Assembly (NCBI GenBank): GCA_027081275.1
Contig: JALWKV010000002.1
Span: 1,071-65,070, forward strand
Direction: 5' to 3'
Origin: Gammaproteobacteria bacterium
Lineage (GTDB): Bacteria > Pseudomonadota > Gammaproteobacteria > UWMA-0217
DNA length: 64,000 bases
Shown here: positions 3,860 through 64,000 of the stretch, piece after piece
Layout of the letters: every line of letters starts with the position of its first letter
Numbering within the stretch: the stretch's first letter is position 1
Program-made: the position numbers and the translations under genes
Notes under the pieces: generated by a model
What the model saw: only the letters and a program-made list of their open reading frames with translations
What the model was told of the DNA's origin: nothing
The model's database searches: none

Positions 3860-5275
<1,416 letters not shown>

Positions 5276-5463: not shown

Positions 5464-6867
5464 TCAGAAGCGATACGGCATGCGCAGGCCGAAGGTGAAG
5501 TCGGGTGCGTCGTCGGTCAGGCCGATACCCACGGTCCCAGCGATCGACAGGTGTTTGCCAAGGCTCTGGGTGACGCCGGTGTTGAACATGGCCGAGTTGG
5601 CGTCGCTGCCGGTTACGCTGGTCCAGCCACTGCCGGCGGTGCGGGTGCGGGTCTTGCTGGTCAGCTTGTGGCTGAAAGAGAGGCTCAGGCTGGTGTTTTC
5701 GTTCATCGCGATCGCCATGCCGAGGCCATAGCTCACCGAGTCGCCGAGGTCGATATCGCCGGCGGTGCGTGTCGCCGGGTCGGAATCGACGTCGGAGAAT
5801 GACTCCTTGCGGGTGTAGCCGATGCCGAAGTTGCCGAACAGCACAGCCGGGTCGCTGACCCTGACGAACGAGACGCCGGTATTGAGCGACCAGACGCCGC
5901 TGCCGGTCGGCAGGTTGGCTGGGACCGAGAAGGTCGTTACACCGTCCTGATCCTTTTCGATGATCTGAACGGGAACCCCGTACGGGTGCTTGCCGGTCGG
6001 TGCGGTGATGTCGATGTTCCAGACCCAGTCGAGCTTGCGCGCCGTTGGGAGCAAGCGGTAGCTCATGCCGAAGGAGGCGTCCCCGAGCGCCGGTTGCCGG
6101 GTGACGTCGGTTTCGCTGGTTGCCGTTGCGACGCCTCCGACACCGCCCTTGGCGTAGGTCGTGCTGCGGTAGACCAGTGGCGTCGTCAGGTTCAGTACCA
6201 TGCGGTTCGACACGCCATAGCGCGCTGTCAGCGAATAGGTGAGCGTGTCCGAAGCAACGCCCTCGACAGCCAGATTGCCGAGAAAGATGGCGTCGAGCGC
6301 GAGAAAGCCGTTCAGCGTCAGCTGGGTACGGTCATAGCGGCTGTAGTCGAGCGCCGACTCCAGCGTGAAGGTTTGGTTGAAAGAGGGGTGCTCCGCGTCG
6401 ATCAGATCTTCGACATTGCGAGAAATCGCCGCCACATCTCTCGCCTTTTTCCGATCGGTGCCGACCTGCTTGCCCGATGATGGGGGCGATGCTGGAGTCG
6501 TGTGCTGGCCTGAAGTCTGTTGGGAGCTCGGGGCTGCGGTGGATCGATGAGCATCGCTCCCGGTGAGCGCCTTCAGTTTGAGGTCGAGTGCCCGCAGTTT
6601 TCTCAGGTCGTTGTTGTATTGCCTTCGCAATAACAGCATTTCCTGTTCCAGTTGTTGTCGCGTGACGGTCGGTCCATCGTTCTTGTTTTGAGTATTGTCC
6701 TTGGATGTTGCCGATGAAACGGTTGCAGCTGTCCTCCCTGTTGAAAGCCCCCATTCCCTTTGCGAAGCTGATGAGCTGGTATCGGCCGCAAAAGAAGACG
6801 TGGCGACAATGGCGATTAGTATGGCCGCAGCGGCAGCCTTTGGGCCGAAATCCTTTTCAACTATCAT
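5464..6867 (-). CDS. fapF: FapF-like outer-membrane amyloid secretion pore
   Basis: It has a signal peptide, a coiled-coil segment (LEQEMLLLRRQYNNDLRKLRALDLKLKAL), a Ser/Thr/Pro/Ala-rich linker and a beta-barrel ending in ...MPYRF (C-terminal Phe). It is the last gene of the operon, as in Pseudomonas fap. Confidence 0.8.
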   Translation of the reverse strand: MIVEKDFGPKAAAAAILIAIVATSSFAADTSSSASQREWGLSTGRTAATVSSATSKDNTQNKNDGPTVTRQQLEQEMLLLRRQYNNDLRKLRALDLKLKALTGSDAHRSTAAPSSQQTSGQHTTPASPPSSGKQVGTDRKKARDVAAISRNVEDLIDAEHPSFNQTFTLESALDYSRYDRTQLTLNGFLALDAIFLGNLAVEGVASDTLTYSLTARYGVSNRMVLNLTTPLVYRSTTYAKGGVGGVATATSETDVTRQPALGDASFGMSYRLLPTARKLDWVWNIDITAPTGKHPYGVPVQIIEKDQDGVTTFSVPANLPTGSGVWSLNTGVSFVRVSDPAVLFGNFGIGYTRKESFSDVDSDPATRTAGDIDLGDSVSYGLGMAIAMNENTSLSLSFSHKLTSKTRTRTAGSGWTSVTGSDANSAMFNTGVTQSLGKHLSIAGTVGIGLTDDAPDFTFGLRMPYRF

Positions 6868-6921
6868 GAGTACATCCTGTTTTGGGAAGTGCTTGGCGGA
6901 AAAGGCGCTGCCAAGCGGGGG

Positions 6922-7713
6922 CTACAATCCTCGCAAACCGCTCAATGAAACGCCAAGAATCCTGCTCAGATTGGTCGACTCGTTGCCCGGTTTCATCAGA
7001 ATTGAGAGCTGCATACGGTTCGATATGGTGTGCGCATCGCCCAGCGTGCGGATCGACTGATGCGCGCCGCGACCCGTTCCGCCGATGACGGCGCCGCGAA
7101 TCGACTGCTGGACGACGCCTTGTCCCGCAATGGAGAGCGTTACCATCACGCCGCGCTCGTCGAGCCCAGAGCTGGCGGTAGCACCGGTGTTGTCGGTCAT
7201 GGTGCGGGAGACCGCTTCGGTCCCGCTGTCCCGCGACTCGGGCATGCTGTCGAGCATTCTGATGCCGAGCGTGTTCGAGGCCTGATTGAAATCACCGGCC
7301 ACCTGAATGGTCTGTCCCAGACCGGTCACGTTGTCGATGCCGCCCGGTTCGATGTGCCGGTCGGTGGGCGCCGCGCGTGTCGGAGTGCGGCCGCTGGATA
7401 CGATGCTCACGGTTGGCGTGAAGCTGACGGTGGGCGTGCCGCCGCCGGAAAAGTCCAGCCCGAGCCTGGCGCCACCCGATAGCTGCTGTCCCTGCGCCGT
7501 TTGCCACCTGCTCGCCATTTCCACGCCGAAATAGAGTACGCGATGGGTATCGACGACATATTTCCCCCTGATCTGCGCCATTTCCGGGTTGGTCAGCAGT
7601 GAGATGCCATTGCCCACGCTGCCATCGCCGGGCGCCGCCAGCAGCGCCGCTGGCGCCGCGGGCATCAATATCCCGGCGAGGAGATGGGCGATCAACCTCT
7701 TTCTCGTTTTCAT
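6922..7713 (-). CDS. fapE: FapE-like secreted protein
   Basis: It has a signal peptide, is 263 aa, and sits between the C39 peptidase gene and the fapF-like gene, the canonical fapE position. Any sequence similarity could not be checked. Confidence 0.55.
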   Translation of the reverse strand: MKTRKRLIAHLLAGILMPAAPAALLAAPGDGSVGNGISLLTNPEMAQIRGKYVVDTHRVLYFGVEMASRWQTAQGQQLSGGARLGLDFSGGGTPTVSFTPTVSIVSSGRTPTRAAPTDRHIEPGGIDNVTGLGQTIQVAGDFNQASNTLGIRMLDSMPESRDSGTEAVSRTMTDNTGATASSGLDERGVMVTLSIAGQGVVQQSIRGAVIGGTGRGAHQSIRTLGDAHTISNRMQLSILMKPGNESTNLSRILGVSLSGLRGL

Positions 7714-7725
7714 TTGTTGTGTTCC

Positions 7726-8430
7726 TCAGAAAAGGTCCGCATGAGTAAAACCGAAATCCAGCAGTTCCGAATCTGGTATCGCGGCCTGTTTTTCCAGCCA
7801 TTGATTGGCGCTGAGCCTGAACGGCATTTTCAGCAGTGCGGTGTTGCGATCGAAGCCGCTGCCGATGACAGCGAAAATCACCCGGTTGGCCCAGGCTTTG
7901 CGGAATGCTTCGAGATCCATCACCTTGTTGCCCAGTACCGGGTCGGCGAGAAACGCCTCGCCATCATGGATGCGTTTCAGAACGGAGAAATGCCGGTAGC
8001 CATCGATGTCCACCAGGACGATGACCGGGATCTTCAGTCTCTTCAGACGCTCCTCGGTAAGGCGATAACCGCGCCCGCGCAGCCCCAGTGATCCGACGTA
8101 GCGCTTCATGTCGAGCATCGAGAATCCTTTGCGTCGCACGATTTCTGCGTCGCCGGCATTGAGCATGCCCTGCATGATGACTTCTTCGGTCGCATCCATG
8201 CCGTAGCCGTACTTCAGAATCGTGGCCAGTGCCGCCGCGCCGCAGCTGTAGTCCGTTTGTTGCCTGATCACATTGGCGTATTTTGCTTCCTGCATGCTGA
8301 CGACGCGGCTGGTGTAGAGCCCGCCGAAAGCGGTTACGCCCGAGAACTGGACGTTTCCGGCGCCGGCGGTTGTCCCCGACAGGTACATCGCCGATGCCAG
8401 TAGTGCTGTGACGAAAGACTTGCGTTGCAT
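7726..8430 (-). CDS. fapD: FapD-like periplasmic C39-family cysteine peptidase
   Basis: It has a signal peptide and the peptidase C39 catalytic region ...QQTDYSCGAAALATILKYGYG... Confidence 0.8.
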   Translation of the reverse strand: MQRKSFVTALLASAMYLSGTTAGAGNVQFSGVTAFGGLYTSRVVSMQEAKYANVIRQQTDYSCGAAALATILKYGYGMDATEEVIMQGMLNAGDAEIVRRKGFSMLDMKRYVGSLGLRGRGYRLTEERLKRLKIPVIVLVDIDGYRHFSVLKRIHDGEAFLADPVLGNKVMDLEAFRKAWANRVIFAVIGSGFDRNTALLKMPFRLSANQWLEKQAAIPDSELLDFGFTHADLF

Positions 8431-8513
8431 GAGACCGGCCTCGCTGACTGGAATGTGTGTTTGGATGCCGGGGCCGAAGGCGTCGGCCCCGGTGCGCTTG
8501 ACGCGATGCTCCG

Positions 8514-10625
8514 TCAGTGGCCGGTGGGCTTGCTGGCCGTGCTGGAGGCGATCGCCAGGCTGTTGGCCTGCATGTTGCCGTTGCCGGATGACATGTTCAC
8601 GCCGATGTTGCCGCTGGCGCCGGACAGCGCATTGCCGCCCAGTACGACCCGGTTGACGGCGTTGTCGACGAGGATGTGCGTCTTGTAGGTAACGGTGCCC
8701 GAGACTTCCGTGGCCAGATTGATGTCAGACATCTCTTCGAAGCTCAGCGTGCCATTTTCGCTGCCGTTGCTGGAGGCGTTGACACTGCCGTTGATCTTGC
8801 CCGATTCACTCCCCGCGTACTTGCCGGAGGAGCTGGCCTGGGTCGAACCTGCGGCCTGGCCCTGGTAGCTTCCTTCCGCCTTGGCCTTCAGCTCGCCTTT
8901 TTCGTTGCCGCGATACTCGCCGGCCTCTCGTCCCTTGTACACACCTTGGGAGACTGCAGCGGTTTTACCCGCTTCCTCCCCCTGGTAGTAGCCTTCGTTC
9001 GTGGTTCTGAGCTTGCCCTGCTCGGTCCCCGCGAACTTGCCGGACTCCTTGCCCTCGTAGATGCCCTTGATTGTGGCCGAGGTGCTGCCTTCTTCCCTGC
9101 CTCGATAACGACCCTGGCTCGTCGCCCGGGTCTCGCCACTGGCGTCGCCGCGGAATTTGCCGCTTTCGCTGCCTTCATACTCGCCGACAGAGAGCGCTGC
9201 CGTGACGCCCACTTCGCCACCGCTGTAGCTGCCACTGCTGGTGCCGCTGTATGCGCCGGTCTCGCCACCGGTGATCTGTCCTGAAGCGTTGCCTTCATAG
9301 CTGCCGTTGGATGTCCCCTCGTAGGTGCCTTTTTCTTTCATCACGGTGATGCCGACGACAGGCAGCTTGTGTTTTCCTTTGTAGTTGCCGCTCTGCTCGG
9401 CACTTGTGGTGCCGGATTCGGTGCCGTTGTAGGAGGCCGCTATTTCGCCGTTGTAGAAGCCGCTGGTCTGGCTCTGGGTCGTTCCCGCCTCGACGCCGAT
9501 GTAACCACCGATCGATGCGGCTTCCGTGGTGCCTTCCTGCTCGCCTTCGTAGGTGCCGTTGATGGTGCCCTTGTAGCTGCCCGCGATGTGCGCCTGCGTA
9601 TTGCCGCGTGCCACGCCCTCGTAGTTGCCTGTCGACTTGGCGGCGGTCTTGCCGTAGCTCTCACCGTTGTATTCGCCTTGCAGTCTTCCAGCGTATTCGC
9701 CGGTGCTGTGCCCCGCGGTTCGTCCGCCGGTCTCACCCGCGTAGATGCCCAGCGAGATCCCTGCTGTCGCACCCTCCGCCTGACCGTTGTAGCGGCCCGC
9801 TTCCTGGCCCTGGTACGCGCCGGCGATGTTGGCGGTGGTTGTACCTTTCTCGGCGCCCTTGTAGCTGCCTGTCAGCTGCGCCGACGTGGCGCCGCTCGCG
9901 CTGCCGCTGTAGTTGGCGTTCACGCTGCCGTTGATATTCGCGTTGGTCTGACCGGCGTAGCTGCCCTTGCCAACGCCCCTGGAGGTACCGTTCGATTCGC
10001 CCTTGAGTTCGATCGTGGTGGAATCGGAGACGACGTCGTAGCGACCTTCGGTGGTGACCGAGTTGCCGATTGACTCCTGATGGACGCCGGCGGAAGCCGC
10101 CACTGGTCCGGTTGAGGAGACCGATACGGCAAAATCGTTCTTTTGCAGATTGAAATTGCCGGAAGCGATGTTGGCGCCGACGTTGCCGCTAACGTTGCTG
10201 ATGGCGTAACCATCGAGCCATGCCTCATTGCGACTGCCCGAGCTGGAAAACCTGTTGCCGTTGATGCGCTGCTCGACGAAAACCTCGGCCGTCGGGTCGC
10301 CGAAGACAAAGGACGCATCGCTGTCGGACGTGGCGATGGCAGCGGCGTTGGCCTGCATGTTGTTGTCGCCCGAGGAAATGTTCACGCCCATGTTGCCGGA
10401 GGTATCCTTCATAGCGTTCTCGTTGAGCGACGACTGGTTGTCGGCTGACTTGACGACAATGGCGTTGCCTTCGGCTGCCTGCCTATCGGAGACCGATGCC
10501 ATTGCCTGGGCCGCGACGGTATTGCCGTTTTGTGCCGGCGTCGTTTCGGTCGCAAGCAGCGGGGTGCTCGTGATGCATGCGGTGACTGCGACACAGATTG
10601 CAGTTTTCTTGTATTGGATTTTCAT
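8514..10625 (-). CDS. fapC: FapC-like amyloid major subunit with a greatly expanded repetitive linker (703 aa)
   Basis: After the signal peptide there are two N-terminal Fap repeats (SGNMGVNISSGDNNMQANAAAIA and SGNVGANIASGNFNLQKNDFAVS) and one C-terminal Fap repeat (SGNIGVNMSSGNGNMQANSLAIAS). They are separated by ~450 aa of 11-residue GxYxGxxxGxx repeats. The ATG at 10625 has a GGGAGAAGAGAG ribosome-binding site, whereas the ORF-track start at 10643 is TTG. Confidence 0.8.
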   Translation of the reverse strand: MKIQYKKTAICVAVTACITSTPLLATETTPAQNGNTVAAQAMASVSDRQAAEGNAIVVKSADNQSSLNENAMKDTSGNMGVNISSGDNNMQANAAAIATSDSDASFVFGDPTAEVFVEQRINGNRFSSSGSRNEAWLDGYAISNVSGNVGANIASGNFNLQKNDFAVSVSSTGPVAASAGVHQESIGNSVTTEGRYDVVSDSTTIELKGESNGTSRGVGKGSYAGQTNANINGSVNANYSGSASGATSAQLTGSYKGAEKGTTTANIAGAYQGQEAGRYNGQAEGATAGISLGIYAGETGGRTAGHSTGEYAGRLQGEYNGESYGKTAAKSTGNYEGVARGNTQAHIAGSYKGTINGTYEGEQEGTTEAASIGGYIGVEAGTTQSQTSGFYNGEIAASYNGTESGTTSAEQSGNYKGKHKLPVVGITVMKEKGTYEGTSNGSYEGNASGQITGGETGAYSGTSSGSYSGGEVGVTAALSVGEYEGSESGKFRGDASGETRATSQGRYRGREEGSTSATIKGIYEGKESGKFAGTEQGKLRTTNEGYYQGEEAGKTAAVSQGVYKGREAGEYRGNEKGELKAKAEGSYQGQAAGSTQASSSGKYAGSESGKINGSVNASSNGSENGTLSFEEMSDINLATEVSGTVTYKTHILVDNAVNRVVLGGNALSGASGNIGVNMSSGNGNMQANSLAIASSTASKPTGH

Positions 10626-10654
10626 AAGACTCTCTTCTCCCAAGTGGATTGATG

Positions 10655-11314
10655 TTATGGAGTGGTTTGCATGAACACGCGGTTTTGCGTGACGTTGTGC
10701 ATCCCTGCTGCCTGGTTGAGCTGAAGCACGCCCTTGACGCCTCGGAAGGCCGTCTTGTCGACATGTGCGGTGCGAATGCCGCCGGATTTCCTGTCATTGG
10801 ACCGTCCGGATGCAGCGGCGACATCCAGTGAAGTCTGCGCCAGCAGATCATCGGTCAGCTCCGCCGGCAGTCTTTCATGTGAAATGGTGATGGCATTGCT
10901 TTCCAGATTGCCGGCGCCGCTGGCCTGGTTGATCGACAGTAGACCAACCGTGTTTTGAAATGCGTTTTCGCGGATGCTGGTGGTCAAGGCGTCGGCGGAT
11001 GTTGCGCCGGCCAGTGATGAAACCTGTCTGATGCTGGCTGTGGCCGGCCCCGAGCCGGCGCCTTCATTGATCGCGCGGACGTTGGCCTGCAGGTTGAAAT
11101 CTCCTGCTGCCTGGTTGATCCCGACGATCCCCTTGACATTACTGAGTGCGTTGTTGGTGATGATGGCGTCGCTGAGATGGCCGAAGTCTTCGGTAGCCGT
11201 CAGCGGCTGGGTCGTGCCGGCGAGCGCCAGCCCTATTGCCGAGGCGGTGAAGAAACGTCGAAACGGATATTCCGAAAATGGTATCCGCCTGTTCTGACTG
11301 GTCTTGCTGGACAT
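10655..11314 (-). CDS. fapB: FapB-like amyloid minor subunit / nucleator
   Basis: It has a signal peptide plus three Fap repeats (GIVGINQAAGDFNLQANVRAIN, VGLLSINQASGAGNLESNAITI, KGVLQLNQAAGMHNVTQNRVFM) matching the GxxGxNQAAGxxNxQxN consensus. It is the first gene of the operon, with a GGGAGGA ribosome-binding site. Confidence 0.75.
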   Translation of the reverse strand: MSSKTSQNRRIPFSEYPFRRFFTASAIGLALAGTTQPLTATEDFGHLSDAIITNNALSNVKGIVGINQAAGDFNLQANVRAINEGAGSGPATASIRQVSSLAGATSADALTTSIRENAFQNTVGLLSINQASGAGNLESNAITISHERLPAELTDDLLAQTSLDVAAASGRSNDRKSGGIRTAHVDKTAFRGVKGVLQLNQAAGMHNVTQNRVFMQTTP

Positions 11315-56908: not shown

Positions 56909-57891
56909 CCCCCTATCCCTGGCAATCGTCGCAGTGGCAGCGCCTGCAGCAGCAGCGCGAGCGCGATCTGCTGCCCCACGCCCTGCTGCTCTATGGCCAG
57001 CCCGGACTCGGTCTCGACCATTTCGCGCACTGCCTGATCCAGTCGCTGCTGTGCGAGGCGCCGACGGCCGACGGCGCGGCTTGCGGGGATTGTCCCGCCT
57101 GTCGCCAGTTCATGCAGGGCGTTTATCCCGACTACTGCGAGGTGGGGATGGCCGAGGACAAGTCGGCCATCCTGGTCGACCAGATCAGGGCGCTCAACGA
57201 GTTCATCGGCCTCACCCAGAGCAGCCGGGGCCGCAAGCTGGTGCTGTTGTCGCCGGCGGACAGGATGAATGTCAATGCCGCCAACAGCCTGCTCAAGACG
57301 CTGGAAGAGCCGTCGGGTGATACCGTCATCGTGCTGGTCGCCCACTCGCTCAGCCGGTTGCCGGCGACGATTCGCAGCCGCTGCCAGCTGGTGAAGTTTG
57401 GCAAGCCGGGCAGGGAGGTAGCCCGGCAGTGGCTGGCGCAACGCGGCTGCGAGCAGATCGATCACCTGCTGCATCTGGCCAATGGCGCGCCCTGTCTGGC
57501 CGAACAGATGAACGATCCGGCGCTGCTCGACAGCTACCAGCAGGTGGTGACGGCGCTGCTGGAGGCGCTGGAGTCGCGTCGTACCGTGCCGGAGCTGCGC
57601 AAGCTGGCGGCCGGTGTCGAGCGGGGCCGGCTGGTGGGGTGGATTCAAAGTGTGTTGCGTGACTTGCAACGAGCGTTCCATGGCCTGCCGGATGCCAGTT
57701 TTGAGAACTCCACCCGGGTTCCGCTGTTGCGTCGCATCGCAGGGTTGCTAGACTCGAAAGCCGTTTTCGAGGTGAGCGACCGGCTGCTCAAGACGGCCGC
57801 GACCGTCGATCACCCACTCAATGCCGATCTGTTTCTGGATGATCTGATCCAGAACTGGATGCAACTGGCGCCGGGCCGGCGCAGCGCATGA
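56896..57891 (+). CDS. holB: DNA polymerase III delta-prime subunit
   Basis: It has an AAA+ clamp-loader fold and Zn-module cysteines (CGDCPAC). Confidence 0.85.
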   Translation: MAELTPYPWQSSQWQRLQQQRERDLLPHALLLYGQPGLGLDHFAHCLIQSLLCEAPTADGAACGDCPACRQFMQGVYPDYCEVGMAEDKSAILVDQIRALNEFIGLTQSSRGRKLVLLSPADRMNVNAANSLLKTLEEPSGDTVIVLVAHSLSRLPATIRSRCQLVKFGKPGREVARQWLAQRGCEQIDHLLHLANGAPCLAEQMNDPALLDSYQQVVTALLEALESRRTVPELRKLAAGVERGRLVGWIQSVLRDLQRAFHGLPDASFENSTRVPLLRRIAGLLDSKAVFEVSDRLLKTAATVDHPLNADLFLDDLIQNWMQLAPGRRSA

Positions 57892-58274
57892 ATGCAACCC
57901 TGCAAACCGGTAGAAACTGGAACATCGATAAAATGGCAGACGGACATCCCATCCTTTCCCTCTCCATCAAGGAGAAGAACTCCCTGTACGCCGCGTACAT
58001 TCCGTTCATCAAGAACGGCGGGCTGTTCATTCCGACCGGCAAGCCCTACCAGCTGGGGGACGAGGTTTTCATCCTGCTGCACCTGATGGATGAGCCCGAC
58101 CGCATTCCGGTTGCAGGCAAGGTCGTCTGGGTCACGCCGCGCGGCGCGTCCGGCAGCCGCACGCCCGGCATCGGCGTCCAGTTCAATCCCGACGACAAGG
58201 GCGGCACGCGGCAGAAGATCGAGGATCTGCTCGGCGGCTCACTCAACACCGAAAAGCCAACGCACACGATGTAG
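57888..58274 (+). CDS. pilZ: PilZ-domain type IV pilus biogenesis protein
   Basis: It has a PilZ domain and overlaps holB by 4 bp, exactly as in the Pseudomonas tmk-holB-pilZ arrangement. Confidence 0.8.
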   Translation: MNATLQTGRNWNIDKMADGHPILSLSIKEKNSLYAAYIPFIKNGGLFIPTGKPYQLGDEVFILLHLMDEPDRIPVAGKVVWVTPRGASGSRTPGIGVQFNPDDKGGTRQKIEDLLGGSLNTEKPTHTM

Positions 58275-58901
58275 CGCGACCGAGTCCAGCAGATGAAGAT
58301 CTTCTGGACGGTCGATGTCATCGAGGGCCGGTAGCAGCTGGTACGCTGCACCGGCCCTTTTCATGTTGCGCAGCGTTCTCTCCAGCACATCCGCGCCACC
58401 CCATTCGATGCCCTCGAAGCAGCGTGACGGCAGTGGCTTGCGCGCGCCCACCAGAACGAAGCCGCCATCGCTCGCCGGAGCGAAAACGAACGGGGTGCGA
58501 CGCAGCGCGTCATGGGCCCGTCGGAAATGGTCCGGCGTGAAAAAAGGGCAGTCGGCGCCGATCAGCAGTACCGGTTGGCGTGACCGGCGCAGTTCGGATG
58601 AGATGGCGTTGCGCATGCGCTGACCGAGATCGCTGCCCGACTGGTCGCATTGCCTGATGGCAAGACGGCGCGCTGCGCGCCGGAGCAGACGTGACGGGGA
58701 GCGCGGCGGCGTCCACAGGCTGACGCTGGCGCCGGGGGTTCGGCGGCACTGCCACAGCGTCTGCATCAGCAGCTGTCGATGCAGCGCCACGCAGCGCGCC
58801 GGGGTTAGCGCCAGTTGCAGCCGCGTCTTGACGCGGCCGTGCCGAGGCGCCTTCGAGAAGACCGCGAGGCTGAAATCCGGGCCGAGGCAGTTACGGCTCA
58901 C
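58239..58901 (-). CDS. DUF2064 family protein (TIGR04282-like glycosyltransferase/nucleotidyltransferase-like)
   Basis: LAVFSKAPRHGRVKTRL ... LLIGADCP ... DIDRPEDL. It is translationally coupled (11-bp overlap) to the upstream GT2 gene. Confidence 0.7.
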   Translation of the reverse strand: MSRNCLGPDFSLAVFSKAPRHGRVKTRLQLALTPARCVALHRQLLMQTLWQCRRTPGASVSLWTPPRSPSRLLRRAARRLAIRQCDQSGSDLGQRMRNAISSELRRSRQPVLLIGADCPFFTPDHFRRAHDALRRTPFVFAPASDGGFVLVGARKPLPSRCFEGIEWGGADVLERTLRNMKRAGAAYQLLPALDDIDRPEDLHLLDSVALHRVRWLFGVE

Positions 58902-59571
58902 GGTAGTAGCGCCGGTACAGCCGTTGTGGCGAAGCGCGGAAGAAATAGGCCAGCCGCAGCCGCCACATCCGCAGAATGCTTCTGATCACGCCATGCCGCT
59001 CCCAGTAGCGCATCGAGATGATGGCCGGCCCGGCGAGGCAGAGAGGCTTCGCGAACCTTTTCAGCCGCTTGCTGAGCGCAATGTCCTCCATCAGCGGCAT
59101 GTCGGGAAAGCCGCCGGCCTGCTCGAAAAGGGAGCGTGAAACGAAGATGGCCTGATCGCCGGTGGCGATGCCGGTGATGCGGCTGCGCCAGTTCATCAGC
59201 GTGGTGATGACGCGAAAGGGCAGGCCGGCCCGGTCGGGCCGGACGTCGAAGCGACCCCAGGTCGTTTCTTGCAGCTCCAGCAGAGGGAGCAATGCGGTTT
59301 CGGTCAGGCGCGTGTCGGCGTGGAGGAACAGCAGCATCCGCCCCTCCGCGATGGCGGCGCCGGCGTTCATCTGCGCTGCCCGCCTGCGTCGCGCCGTCAG
59401 TTGCCGGTCGGAGAGGGGCCTCGCCAGCTCGAGCGTGGCGTCGTCGCTGCCGCCATCGACGACGATGATCTCGACCCGCTTGTTGCGCAAATCCTGTAGC
59501 GGCGCGAGCGCGGCTTCGATATTGCGGGCCTCGTTCAGCGTCGGGATGATGATCGAAAGATCGGGATGCAT
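58891..59571 (-). CDS. family 2 glycosyltransferase (TIGR04283-like)
   Basis: LSIIIPTLNEARNI ... IVVDGGSDD ... GDQAIFV, a GT-A fold. Confidence 0.75.
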   Translation of the reverse strand: MHPDLSIIIPTLNEARNIEAALAPLQDLRNKRVEIIVVDGGSDDATLELARPLSDRQLTARRRRAAQMNAGAAIAEGRMLLFLHADTRLTETALLPLLELQETTWGRFDVRPDRAGLPFRVITTLMNWRSRITGIATGDQAIFVSRSLFEQAGGFPDMPLMEDIALSKRLKRFAKPLCLAGPAIISMRYWERHGVIRSILRMWRLRLAYFFRASPQRLYRRYYREP

Positions 59572-59574
59572 GCG

Positions 59575-60531
59575 CTACAGCGCGCCACCGCAGCTGCTGC
59601 CCTGGCCGGCGGTACAGCCGTAGCAGTGGTCGGCAACGTAGATGGGCGCGCCTTCGAGGCCGTTTTCCAGCAGGTCGCGCAGATGGAGATGGCCTTTCCG
59701 TCCCGGGATGCCGCGCCCCAGCATCTGGTTGAAGTCGCAGTCGTAGAGCTGGCCGCGCCAGTCGACGCTGACGAGCGTGCGGCACATGACGGCGGAGAGA
59801 TTGGCGGGCTGGAACGATTGCTTGAGCAGCGCAAGGTAGTCGTCGAACTCGCCTTTGGAGATGAGGGTGCTGCCGAAGCGGGCGATCGGCATGTTGGTGA
59901 TGCTGAACAGATTGTTGAAGGTGATGCCGTAACGCTGCCGGAGGATGCGACGGTAGTCTTCTTCCAGCGCCTGCTGCGACGGCGGGAGATAGGGGCCGAG
60001 CGGATTGTAGACAAGGTTCAGCACCAGCCCGCTCCGCTTCTCACCGTAACCGAGGGCGTTGAGCCGCCGCAGCCCGGCAATGCTGCGCTCAAAAACGCCG
60101 TTGCCGCGCTGGCTGTCCACGTTTTCCTCGAGATAGCAGGGCAGCGAGGCGACGACCTCGACCTGCTGGCTGGCGAGGAAATCGGCCAGATCCTCCTGCC
60201 CCGCTTCGCCGAGAATGGTGAGGTTGCAGCGGTCGATGACGTGCATGCCCAGCTTCCGCGCGCCGGCGACGAGGCGACGAAAGCCGGGGTTCAGCTCCGG
60301 CGCGCCGCCGGTGAGATCGAGGGTCGAGATCTTGCGCGCCCGCGCCACTTCGAGCACCAGCGCCAGCGTCTCGTCGTCCATTTGCTCGGTGCGGCGTGGC
60401 CCGGCGTTGACGTGGCAGTGCAGGCAGCTCTGATTGCAGCGATAGCCGAGGTTGACCTGCAGCGTATCGATGGTTGCGCGGCGCAGGGCGGGGAAATCGC
60501 TCTGTTCGAGCAGCGGTAGTGTGTCGAGCAT
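59575..60531 (-). CDS. radical SAM / Cys-rich C-terminal domain protein (ArsS-like, TIGR04167-type)
   Basis: It has a CNQSCLHC (Cx3Cx2C) radical-SAM cluster motif and a C-terminal Cys-rich tail (CYGCTAGQGSSCGG). It is the first gene of a three-gene operon. Confidence 0.8.
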   Translation of the reverse strand: MLDTLPLLEQSDFPALRRATIDTLQVNLGYRCNQSCLHCHVNAGPRRTEQMDDETLALVLEVARARKISTLDLTGGAPELNPGFRRLVAGARKLGMHVIDRCNLTILGEAGQEDLADFLASQQVEVVASLPCYLEENVDSQRGNGVFERSIAGLRRLNALGYGEKRSGLVLNLVYNPLGPYLPPSQQALEEDYRRILRQRYGITFNNLFSITNMPIARFGSTLISKGEFDDYLALLKQSFQPANLSAVMCRTLVSVDWRGQLYDCDFNQMLGRGIPGRKGHLHLRDLLENGLEGAPIYVADHCYGCTAGQGSSCGGAL

Positions 60532-60548
60532 GGTGGGTTCGCCTGTTG

Positions 60549-60592
60549 AGTAATCTCTGAACAATTCAGGGATGAATTGTTCAGAGATTACT
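60549..60592. promoter_or_regulatory. perfect 19-bp inverted repeat (AGTAATCTCTGAACAATTC-agggat-GAATTGTTCAGAGATTACT), candidate operator at the 5' end of the radical-SAM operon
   Basis: The symmetry is exact. It is centred ~40 bp upstream of the likely ATG (60531) of the radical-SAM gene and is AT-richer than its surroundings. Confidence 0.5.
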
Positions 60593-60696
60593 ATAAAGCA
60601 TCACGATGCCGCTCGCGCCGCGCGGCGGTGCAGGCCGGGGTGAGAAAGGGTACAATCGGATCTCCCCAGAGGCGCCGTTTTACGGATGGACCACCG

Positions 60697-60939
60697 ATGA
60701 ACTGGCTCAGACAGACCCCCACTGTTCCCTTTGCGATCATTGCCATCATGCTGGCGATGGCGCCGTTCAAACCCGAACCGCATCTTATCGAAAAACTGCG
60801 CATGCTGGGGGCGGGCGAGCTGACGCGTCCACTGGATATCTTCGACCTGTTTCTGCATGGCACGCCACTGGTGCTGTTTCTCGTCAAGATCTTCATTGCC
60901 GATCGCCAGGGCACTGCCGACGCAGCCGATGATTCCTGA
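60697..60939 (+). CDS. hypothetical small membrane protein (80 aa)
   Basis: MNWLRQTPTVPFAIIAIMLAMAPF... has one or two predicted transmembrane helices. It is divergent from the radical-SAM operon. Support is weak. Confidence 0.35.
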   Translation: MNWLRQTPTVPFAIIAIMLAMAPFKPEPHLIEKLRMLGAGELTRPLDIFDLFLHGTPLVLFLVKIFIADRQGTADAADDS

Positions 60940-62038: not shown

Positions 62039-62447
62039 CCCCGGCTACGGCCGGGTGGCCGTAGCTTGCACAAGGGTTGCAGGTGGGCCCCCGATACCCT
62101 CCCTCTCCGCCACCCGGTTCATCACATTTTTCCTTCGGATTTTTTTCTGGTTTACCGGCTTTTGCTGCTTGTCGGGTGCGCTCCGGGCTCATGCCGGGTC
62201 TTGCCAGGAGGCGTGGGTGAGGCGTCGCGGCGTGAGCCCTTCAAATTTCTGTGACGCTGGAGGCGGCAACAATGTTCCGCCTGCTTTTTCCTCTTTTGTC
62301 TCCGCCTGATCTGTGCTGTTCGTCAGGAGAAACGGTTGCGCAATACGATAGGGTGGCTTCCCTGCAAGGTCATGGCCGGACGCCTGCTTCAGTTCAATGG
62401 AGAGTGACGGGCCAATAAAAACAATAATCAAGACCGGAGAAGAAGAA

Positions 62448-64000
62448 ATGGGTATAGAGCAACAAGGCACCCTGAACTCGAAAGAGCAGATCGATACGAC
62501 CGCCGAGAATGGCGGTGGCGCCCCTCTCACCGCGATCAACGACTGGATCGATGTTGCCTCCAATTCCGAGAACACGATCATCAATGTGCTGGCCAACGAC
62601 CTGCATGCCGGCGGAAACATTTCCATTGTCCGTTTCGAGCAGCCTGCCAACGGCGTCGTCGTCGACAATGGCAATGGCACTTTCAGCTATACCCCCAATC
62701 CCGGTTACGCCGGCAAGGATACCTTTACCTACGTTGTTGCCGACGACTACGGGAATGAATCTTCCGCGCTGGTGGAAATCTACGTGATCGGCAGCGGCAG
62801 CCAGCCGTCCGATGAGCAGAACGAGCAGCCGGAAAACGCCTTGCCGGATGCCAAGTGGGACGACGCCGTGACCGACGAAAACCAGCCTGTCACCATCGAC
62901 GTGCTGGCGAACGACAAGGATCCGGACGGCGATCCGATTTCCATTACCGGTTATACCCAGCCGCAAAATGGCAAGGTGGTGCAGAATGCCGATGGCTCCT
63001 TTACCTATATTCCCAACCCCGGCTTTCACGGCACCGATGTATTCGAATACTCCGTCACCGACGGCGTCAACTCCTGGGGGGATACCGCTCGGGTGACGAT
63101 CGAGGTCCGCGAAATCGGTCAGGCGCCGGTTGCGCGGGACGACAGCAGCGTTACCGATGAAAACGTTCCGGTGGTCATCGATGTGCTGGCCAACGATTCC
63201 GACCCCGATGGTGATCCGCTGACGGTCTCATCCGCAACGGCCGCGCATGGTTCGGTGCAGATCAATGCCGACGGGAAGCTGGTCTATACGCCGGATGACG
63301 GCTTTTCCGGTCAGGACAGCATCGTCTATGAAATTGTCGATCCCGATGGCAATACCGCGAACGCCACGGTTACCGTGACCGTGCGGGAAGGCAATGAAAC
63401 GCCGGTCGCGATTGGCGACAACGCCGAAGTCGAGCAGGATCAGGTGGTCGTCATCGATGCGCTGGCCAACGACAGTGATGCCGACGGCGATACGCTGTCG
63501 ATCGTCGATTATTCCCAGCCCCAACATGGCATGGTGGTGCAGGATGCTTCCGGCAATTTCGTCTATCGTCCGGAGGCTGGGTTCAGCGGCAGTGACTCGT
63601 TTACCTATGTCGTCAGCGACGGCCAGGGGGGCACGGATACCGCTACCGTGTCGATCAACGTGCTGCCTGTCGTTCCGCCCGAACCGGAAAACAACAGGCC
63701 TGATGCCGATACCGATGTCGCGTTCATCGATCAGGGGCAGCCGAGCATTATCGATGTGCTGGCCAATGACAGCGACCCGGATGGCGACAGTCTGACAGTC
63801 AGCCAGTTTTCCAGGCCGGCGCACGGCAGCGTCGAGCTGAATGACGACGGCACCTTCAGCTACCAGCCCGATGCCAATTTCTCCGGTGTCGATTTCTTTG
63901 AATACACCGTCGATGACGGCAACGGCGGTACCGATACGGCGCGCGTCTACATCTGCGTTCACGAAACCAACCGTGGGCCGGATGCCGATGATGACATGGC
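62448..64000 (+). CDS. large repetitive adhesin-like protein with tandem ~100-aa VCBS / cadherin-like repeats (5' part only; it continues past the window end)
   Basis: There are at least five tandem repeats, each with ...PVA.DD..VTDENQPV.IDVLANDSDPDGDPLTV.......HGSV...DG.F.Y.P..GFSG.DSF.Y.V.DG.GGTDTA.V.I.V... An RBS-like GGAGAAGAAGAA sits upstream and the GC3 codon bias is strong. The gene is absent from the ORF track because no stop codon is reached. Confidence 0.75.
   Translation, partial: MGIEQQGTLNSKEQIDTTAENGGGAPLTAINDWIDVASNSENTIINVLANDLHAGGNISIVRFEQPANGVVVDNGNGTFSYTPNPGYAGKDTFTYVVADDYGNESSALVEIYVIGSGSQPSDEQNEQPENALPDAKWDDAVTDENQPVTIDVLANDKDPDGDPISITGYTQPQNGKVVQNADGSFTYIPNPGFHGTDVFEYSVTDGVNSWGDTARVTIEVREIGQAPVARDDSSVTDENVPVVIDVLANDSDPDGDPLTVSSATAAHGSVQINADGKLVYTPDDGFSGQDSIVYEIVDPDGNTANATVTVTVREGNETPVAIGDNAEVEQDQVVVIDALANDSDADGDTLSIVDYSQPQHGMVVQDASGNFVYRPEAGFSGSDSFTYVVSDGQGGTDTATVSINVLPVVPPEPENNRPDADTDVAFIDQGQPSIIDVLANDSDPDGDSLTVSQFSRPAHGSVELNDDGTFSYQPDANFSGVDFFEYTVDDGNGGTDTARVYICVHETNRGPDADDDM

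Follow-up and report, generated by a model that had tools for sequence, protein, structure and literature searches.

What does a bacterium make when the gene for an ArsS-family enzyme of the radical S-adenosylmethionine (SAM) type is followed by genes for two putative transferases, and no arsM lies nearby? The question is raised by a three-gene operon on contig JALWKV010000002.1 of a gammaproteobacterium (assembly GCA_027081275.1), within a 64-kb stretch of DNA that was analysed as a whole and is called the window here. The operon consists of arsS, a gene for a family 2 glycosyltransferase (GT2) and a gene for a DUF2064 protein. The evidence presented below favours the view that this trio forms the core of an organoarsenical pathway of the arsenosugar type, which we regard as probable, and a dimethylarsinoyl-riboside is the most likely product class. 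That class is favoured because NCBIfam names all three families "arsenosugar biosynthesis", and because related loci and gene fusions tie the trio to ArsM, to a methylthioadenosine (MTA) phosphorylase (MTAP) and to a phosphoesterase-like protein. An earlier sequence-only reading of the locus, which had called the product unknown, was too cautious on this point given these names and links. The three genes are as follows.

59575-60531, minus strand: arsS, ATG start, 318 amino acids (aa), radical-SAM protein with a Cys-rich DUF3641 C-terminal domain, in the Cys and not the selenocysteine (Sec) form
58891-59571, minus strand: GT2 gene, 226 aa, family 2 glycosyltransferase with a predicted GT-A fold, TIGR04283
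58239-58901, minus strand: DUF2064 gene, GTG start, 220 aa, TIGR04282, predicted MobA/CofC-like nucleotidyltransferase fold

All three open reading frames (ORFs) are intact and tightly packed on the minus strand (58239-60531). A 3-nt gap separates arsS from the GT2 gene (TAG-CGC-ATG), and the GT2 stop overlaps the GTG start of the DUF2064 gene by 11 nt (GTGAGCCGTAA); gene callers choose the same GTG start in two relatives (L082 and L090). A longer arsS ORF with a TTG start at 60564 is less likely and runs into a palindrome described below. The coordinates, the motifs and the 36-bp overlap with pilZ reported in the sequence-only reading were all found in the sequence. Its description of the genes as translationally coupled holds for the spacing; the coupling itself is what that spacing suggests.

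Families of the three proteins

The window ArsS scored 460 bits against the NCBIfam model TIGR04167 (curated cut-off 300, E 3.2e-138, profile positions 2-303 of 303), which is named arsenosugar biosynthesis radical SAM (seleno)protein. In Pfam it matched PF04055 (Radical_SAM) and PF12345 (DUF3641, 187 bits). Judged by its profile score, the protein is a full-scoring member of the TIGR04167 equivalog model and not merely an ArsS-like protein. The label "ArsS-like" used earlier was therefore right about the family and understated the membership; ArsS proteins encoded beside arsM are moreover intermixed with those that are not (see below). The relationship that had been proposed to the cyanobacterial arsenosugar enzyme was borne out, since the Synechocystis enzyme belongs to the same family. 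The family is large: more than 8000 clusters were matched at 90% identity, and 733 clusters at 50% identity had E <= 1e-30. An exact-sequence look-up of the window ArsS returned no record, and homologues at 77-98% identity were used.

The radical-SAM cluster motif CNQSCLHC (C32-x3-C36-x2-C39) is invariant in 87 of 87 homologues. The C-terminal tail CYGCTAGQGSSCGGAL carries C303, C306 and C314 in the spacing C303-YG-C306-TAGQGSS-C314, and the Cys-rich tail of the DUF3641 domain reads HCYGCTAGQGSSCGG. All ten cysteines of the protein are conserved in 86-87 of the 87 homologues. Some members of the family are selenoproteins with Sec at a GxxU position (PMC13188914); the corresponding position in the window protein is Cys314, which is specified by a cysteine codon, with no in-frame TGA. 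An AlphaFold2 (AF2) model of ArsS had a mean predicted local distance difference test (pLDDT) score of 85, and its nearest folds by Foldseek were SPASM/twitch-clade radical-SAM enzymes, at a template modelling (TM) score of ~0.5 only. A PDB sequence search found no ArsS relative.

The GT2 protein scored 252.5 bits against TIGR04283 (cut-off 182, E 3e-75, profile 1-221 of 221) and 64 bits against PF00535 (Glycos_transf_2). Its AF2 model (pLDDT 95) has a GT-A fold, for which Foldseek returned the inverting GT2 enzymes WrtF, PcManGT and TarS/TarP (E ~1e-11, TM ~0.65, probability 1.0). The motifs D39-G-x-S42-x-D44, F82-L-H84-x-D86 and M161-E-D163 are invariant. From the model we are confident in predicting a GT-A fold like that of inverting nucleoside diphosphate (NDP)-sugar transferases.

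The DUF2064 protein scored 181.9 bits against TIGR04282 (cut-off 134, E 1e-53, profile 1-189 of 189) and 100.9 bits against PF09837. Its PDB sequence matches were the structural-genomics entry 3CGX (E 1e-19, residues 12-205) and, weakly, 2I5E (Methanosarcina MM_2497, E 6e-4), and its conserved motifs are PxxGxxKTR, GxDCP, DGG and DxD. The fold, the nucleotide-binding motifs and the proposed transfer of a nucleoside monophosphate (NMP) onto a phosphate ester are shared with CofC/FbiD and MobA of the F420 and molybdenum-cofactor pathways, and PF12804 matched at 22 bits. The CofC model TIGR03552, however, gave 47.6 bits, far below its 105-bit cut-off, and the genomic context is without F420 or molybdopterin genes. 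By these scores the protein is related to CofC and is not itself a CofC, and its motifs make it look more like a nucleotidyltransferase than a glycosyltransferase.

All three scores exceed the trusted cut-offs of the models, which confirms the family memberships proposed from the letters alone. Both transferases cover their full profiles and have a TIGR04167 gene beside them, the context by which the two families are defined. NCBIfam calls TIGR04283 and TIGR04282 "arsenosugar biosynthesis glycosyltransferases"; their older names were rSAM/selenodomain-associated transferases 2 and 1, respectively. These names rest on genome context, and we found no supporting experiments. Since all three families are already curated as "arsenosugar biosynthesis" in NCBIfam and are so listed in genome papers, the window adds no new kind of system.

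Conserved neighbourhoods and arsenic-linked partners

The neighbourhood of arsS was surveyed in one genome per GTDB species, and the 80 closest loci were compared; these come mostly from beta- and gammaproteobacteria and encode ArsS proteins of 61-70% identity. Forty-five of the 80 extend for 9 kb or more to either side of arsS, and accessory genes were found by tblastn with single representative proteins. GT2 is present in 34 of the 45 fully flanked loci, and both transferases are present in 32, in agreement with the earlier claim that the trio is co-conserved across genomes; 11 of the 45 carry neither. In 53 of 55 loci GT2 lies downstream of arsS and shares its strand, and DUF2064 starts -21 to +78 nt after GT2 in 43 of 45. 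In the window, the GT2 gene sits directly between the TIGR04167 and TIGR04282 genes.

A fuller cluster emerges from the wider loci, with the order arsS, (phosphoesterase-like), (DedA/VTT-disulfide-reductase fusion), (DUF547), GT2, DUF2064, (DUF3047), (TIGR03169 oxidoreductase), (arsM), where further partners are given in brackets. An MTA phosphorylase or an extracytoplasmic function (ECF) sigma factor is often encoded just upstream of arsS. The fusion of a DedA/VTT membrane domain to a MerA-like pyridine-nucleotide-disulfide oxidoreductase (724 aa; for example L055:11018-13192) lies between arsS and GT2 in 41 of the 80 loci. A TIGR03169 gene ("N-terminal to SelD") was found in 18 of 80, and DUF547 and DUF3047 genes are also recurrent. 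Judged by gene order, the window trio is a minimal version of this larger cluster.

One apparent partner was rejected. A 174-aa "family" upstream of arsS proved to be a shadow ORF of arsS, and translations from L074 and L022 show an uninterrupted ArsS with no Sec codon. More generally, the nucleotide conservation of arsS produces shadow ORFs in other frames (for example L074:9163-9693) that cluster as families in ~28-59 loci, a pitfall of ORF-based neighbourhood surveys in high-GC genomes.

Several partners link the trio to arsenic. An ArsM-like gene is present in 16 of the 80 loci, in seven of them directly beside arsS, and arsS, arsM, GT2 and DUF2064 occur together in ten. The ArsM-like proteins score under the NCBIfam ArsM cut-offs and carry all of the AS3MT-type cysteine motifs (ACCD, YYGCG, SNCV(I/V)NL and GECLGGAL). 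Fusions of ArsS with ArsM occur in both domain orders (P0373, P0414 and P0435; P0409) with the cysteine motifs intact. The window ArsS has a mean identity of 65.8% to ArsS proteins encoded beside arsM and of 65.7% to the others, and the two groups are interleaved phylogenetically. This interleaving and the equal identities give no sign of a separate non-arsenic ArsS subfamily. Further ArsS fusions join the protein to a flavin-reductase domain or to an AhpD/CMD-like domain (P0367, P0449).

An MTA phosphorylase is encoded directly upstream of arsS in 11 of the 80 loci (TIGR01694, 306-320 bits versus a cut-off of 274.85). These loci span beta- and gammaproteobacteria, among them several Burkholderiales and the gammaproteobacterium Microbulbifer. 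In 19 of the 80 loci arsS is followed by a phosphoesterase-like gene (for example L027:10947-11975 and L070:12347-13303), and in other lineages its product is fused to the N-terminus of ArsS (P0430, P0431). This family of ~320-340 aa has calcineurin-type motifs (Metallophos_2, E 0.001-0.008) and gave no match above threshold in Pfam, NCBIfam or the PDB; apparently it is a member of the arsenosugar cluster for which no profile model exists.

Proposed pathway and its alternatives

The ArsS of Synechocystis sp. PCC 6803 adenosylates dimethylarsenite, DMAs(III), to 5'-deoxy-5'-dimethylarsinoyl-adenosine, hereafter DDMAA (PMC13598754; bioRxiv 10.64898/2026.04.29.721666), and its gene is co-transcribed with arsM (bioRxiv 10.1101/2022.09.23.509062). 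Compared at the family level, the window protein resembles that enzyme in its TIGR04167 assignment, its Cx3Cx2C motif, its Cys-rich DUF3641 domain and the expected conversion of DMAs(III) to DDMAA. The gene contexts differ: arsS accompanies arsM in Synechocystis, whereas the window arsS heads an operon with two transferase genes and has no arsM in 64 kb. ArsL of the arsinothricin pathway likewise belongs to the radical-SAM enzymes, creates a C-As bond and partners with an ArsM, but the window protein gave no ArsL-type profile match. Among arsenosugar biosynthetic enzymes, only ArsM and ArsS have been demonstrated in the literature that we searched. On the later steps, reviews state only that the adenine "can then be removed" and that the ribose can be derivatised.

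The gene families and their partners suggest the following series of reactions. ArsS would cleave SAM reductively and attach the 5'-deoxyadenosyl radical to the arsenic atom of dimethylarsenite, in its trivalent form, to give DDMAA, a reaction demonstrated for the family and expected by analogy for the window protein. The dimethylarsenite would be supplied either by the environment or by an ArsM whose gene lies in another part of the genome. An MTA-phosphorylase-type enzyme encoded outside the window would next remove adenine and release 5-deoxy-5-dimethylarsinoyl-alpha-D-ribose-1-phosphate. Such a step is suggested by gene neighbourhoods elsewhere, and DDMAA is a 5'-substituted 5'-deoxyadenosine, as is MTA, so that the reaction would resemble MTA phosphorolysis and 5'-deoxyadenosine salvage; the window is without an MTAP gene, and the enzyme acting on DDMAA would be found outside the window or outside the cell. 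The DUF2064 protein, to judge from its fold and motifs, could then act as a nucleotidyltransferase that couples the sugar-1-phosphate to an NMP to yield an NDP-alpha-sugar, from which the inverting GT2 would move the arsenoribosyl group to glycerol or to a phosphorylated or lipid acceptor, giving a beta-riboside. Where the acceptor or intermediate is phosphorylated, the phosphoesterase-like protein, if present, would remove the phosphate to finish the product. The specific roles for DUF2064 and GT2 are put forward tentatively, at clearly lower confidence than the pathway assignment as a whole.

Phosphorolysis of a beta-nucleoside gives an alpha-1-phosphate, enzymes of family GT2 invert, and arsenosugars are beta-ribofuranosides. 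An enzyme order of MTAP, DUF2064 and inverting GT2 would thus account for the beta-ribofuranoside configuration of arsenosugars.

A number of observations weigh against this pathway. An arsM was seen within 10 kb in only 16 of the 80 related loci, and homologues of ArsM, MTAP, the phosphoesterase-like protein and the other accessory families were all absent from the 64-kb window. ArsM, ArsS, adenine removal and riboside formation are therefore not encoded together there, and the substrate supply and the adenine-removal step have no local account. Queries with E. coli ArsR, ArsB and ArsC and with three ArsM proteins gave only chance-level tblastn matches in the window (Acr3, ArsH and ArsC of the low-molecular-weight protein tyrosine phosphatase type lay outside this search); no ArsM, ArsR, ArsB or ArsC homologue is present, in line with the statement of the sequence-only reading that no arsM or ars genes lie nearby. 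An MTAP gene beside that of a SAM-consuming enzyme could reflect by-product recycling alone. NCBIfam grades TIGR04282 as "hypoth_equivalog", and the literature searched gave no experiment that assigns a reaction to TIGR04282 or TIGR04283 or to the steps after ArsS, which accords with the earlier description of the transferases as largely uncharacterised. A donor of the NDP-ribofuranose kind would be unusual. At the canonical D-x-D site the GT2 carries H-x-D (F82-L-H84-A-D86), as do 51 of 51 aligned members. The DedA/VTT fusion, TIGR03169, DUF3047 and DUF547 partners hint at chemistry outside the proposed series, and related Burkholderiales predominate in the comparison set, so that the locus counts overstate the number of independent events.

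Some of these observations would fit a system of the same architecture with another substrate, in which selenium, antimony or sulfur species are adenosylated and the transferases build a non-arsenic 5'-deoxyribosyl conjugate. Such a substrate would be in line with the lack of arsM in the window and within 10 kb in 64 of the 80 loci, with the size of the ArsS family (733 clusters at 50% identity), with the neighbouring DedA/VTT-disulfide-reductase fusion (41/80) and TIGR03169 genes (18/80), the latter encoding a domain that is fused to SelD in some species, and with the Sec that some family members carry at the position of Cys314 (PMC13188914). The presence of Sec in an enzyme is uninformative about its substrate, however, and the window showed no gene of selenium metabolism. 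By sequence, ArsS proteins do not divide according to whether arsM is adjacent, the fusions with ArsM in both orders keep the As(III)-binding cysteines, and the ten ArsS cysteines are invariant across the homologue set. We consider a non-arsenic substrate unlikely on these grounds. Somewhat less probable again is a division of labour in which ArsS alone acts on arsenic, with GT2 and DUF2064 serving another glycoconjugate or cofactor pathway from a shared operon. Both transferases do resemble generic families (GT2 and CofC/MobA-like), neither is present in 11 of the 45 fully flanked loci, and two loci (L028 and L063) have arsS and arsM with no GT2 or DUF2064 within 10 kb. Against such a division, in 53 of 55 loci from beta-, gamma- and alphaproteobacterial records the pair stands behind arsS and shares its strand, the pairing survives the insertion of 2-9 kb of cluster genes between arsS and GT2, and both proteins match dedicated equivalog-level models defined by this very association.

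The absence of a local arsM, MTAP or regulator, together with the failure of a consensus scan to detect a canonical promoter, might also be read as the mark of a silent evolutionary remnant with no current function. This we regard as highly improbable: the three ORFs are intact with full-length hidden Markov model (HMM) coverage, their synteny, spacing and 36-nt overlap with pilZ are kept down to 77% ArsS identity, their G+C content at third codon positions (GC3) is that of the genome, and the candidate -10 elements are conserved. An arsenosugar-type pathway with the trio at its core is thus the reading that we prefer.

Genomic setting and biological meaning

The features that border the trio are listed here.

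57888-58274, plus strand: pilZ, convergent to the DUF2064 gene
60532-60696, no strand assigned: intergenic region from which arsS and the 80-aa gene diverge, with candidate -10 boxes and a palindrome
60697-60939, plus strand: gene for an 80-aa small hydrophobic protein, a possible accessory gene with a loose association only

On one side the trio is flanked by housekeeping genes (dut, coaBC, radC, obg, proB, aroB and aroK, with pilQ and pilP), and the same set continues with the fab cluster and then pabC, mltG, tmk, holB and pilZ. At their 3' ends, pilZ and the DUF2064 gene overlap by exactly 36 nt (58239-58274), a count kept to the nucleotide in L081, L082, L085 and L090, at 77-95% ArsS identity. 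On the other side lies a divergent operon whose products are the hydrophobic protein of 80 aa, an Rv2949c-like protein and a protein of 110 aa, followed by a giant cadherin-type adhesin. The adhesin frame (~62352-64000, plus strand) has at least 549 codons with cadherin/Big_9-type repeats and continues past the end of the window; in relatives the adhesin is 1500-2300 aa long and has a TolC-like outer-membrane protein next to it. GC3 of the trio genes is 0.75-0.85, as in their neighbours, and the composition profile shows no break. The arrangement, including the 36-nt pilZ overlap, is identical in relatives at 77-98% ArsS identity from metagenomes and metagenome-assembled genomes, one of them a hydrothermal-vent metagenome, which indicates that the operon is a stable chromosomal feature of the lineage. 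No Rfam families or tRNAs were matched in the window.

No canonical sigma-70 promoter was found upstream of arsS by the consensus scan. Relatives at 92-98% ArsS identity retain a TATAGT box (60590-60595, minus strand) and, on the opposite side, a GTACAAT; the stretch from the -10 box to the ribosome-binding site is not conserved. Following the TATAGT, and 17 nt upstream of the arsS ATG, is a perfect palindrome (60549-60592) with 20-nt arms, AGTAATCTCTGAACAATTCA-TCCC-TGAATTGTTCAGAGATTACT, whose RNA would fold at -38.7 kcal/mol (z = -7.9). The relative at 98% ArsS identity shares this palindrome, those at 95% and 92% have unrelated sequence in its place, and the window contains no second copy. 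A conserved ArsR/SmtB-type operator or a riboswitch-like element was rejected because the palindrome is lost at 95% and 92% identity and has no Rfam match; it could be a strain-specific operator, a hairpin in the 5' untranslated region or a small insertion.

The 80-aa protein matched no Pfam or NCBIfam model and has 744 homologous clusters, some under the legacy name "RND transporter". Its gene directly follows DUF2064 in L025, L041, L064 and L088 and lies near arsS in L040, and it is paired with a gene for a 124-aa CxxC protein in L025, L040 and L088. A role as an obligate fourth component was rejected, since the gene lies far from any arsS in L087 and L089.

Elsewhere in the window, a group of minus-strand ORFs of 467, 263, 709 and 219 aa with no Pfam match at 1e-8 (5464-11314) surrounds a C39 peptidase gene (7726-8430) and adjoins the gene for a sigma-54 activator that bears a VpsR domain (3860-5275). 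Possibly the region is an uncharacterised cluster for secretion or peptide processing.

In marine algae and seafood, organic arsenic occurs mainly as arsenosugars. The comparative analysis yields a concrete and stereochemically consistent order of candidate enzymes, from MTA phosphorylase through DUF2064 to an inverting GT2, together with a phosphoesterase-like protein. Among beta- and gammaproteobacteria that do not photosynthesise the gene set is widespread, and often no arsM is linked to it; this spread bears on which organisms make or transform organoarsenicals in sediments, wastewater and hydrothermal settings. It is conceivable, if rather speculative, that in arsM-less bacteria, this vent-associated gammaproteobacterium among them, the trio acts as a scavenger of trivalent methylated metalloids (arsenic, possibly selenium or antimony) released by neighbours, turning them into ribosides or riboside lipids by way of an undescribed NDP-5-deoxy-5-(metalloid)-ribose donor. 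Were this so, the DUF2064 protein would be the first example of a sugar-1-phosphate nucleotidyltransferase that acts on a 5-modified ribofuranose, and the GT2 would be the long-sought arsenosugar synthase.

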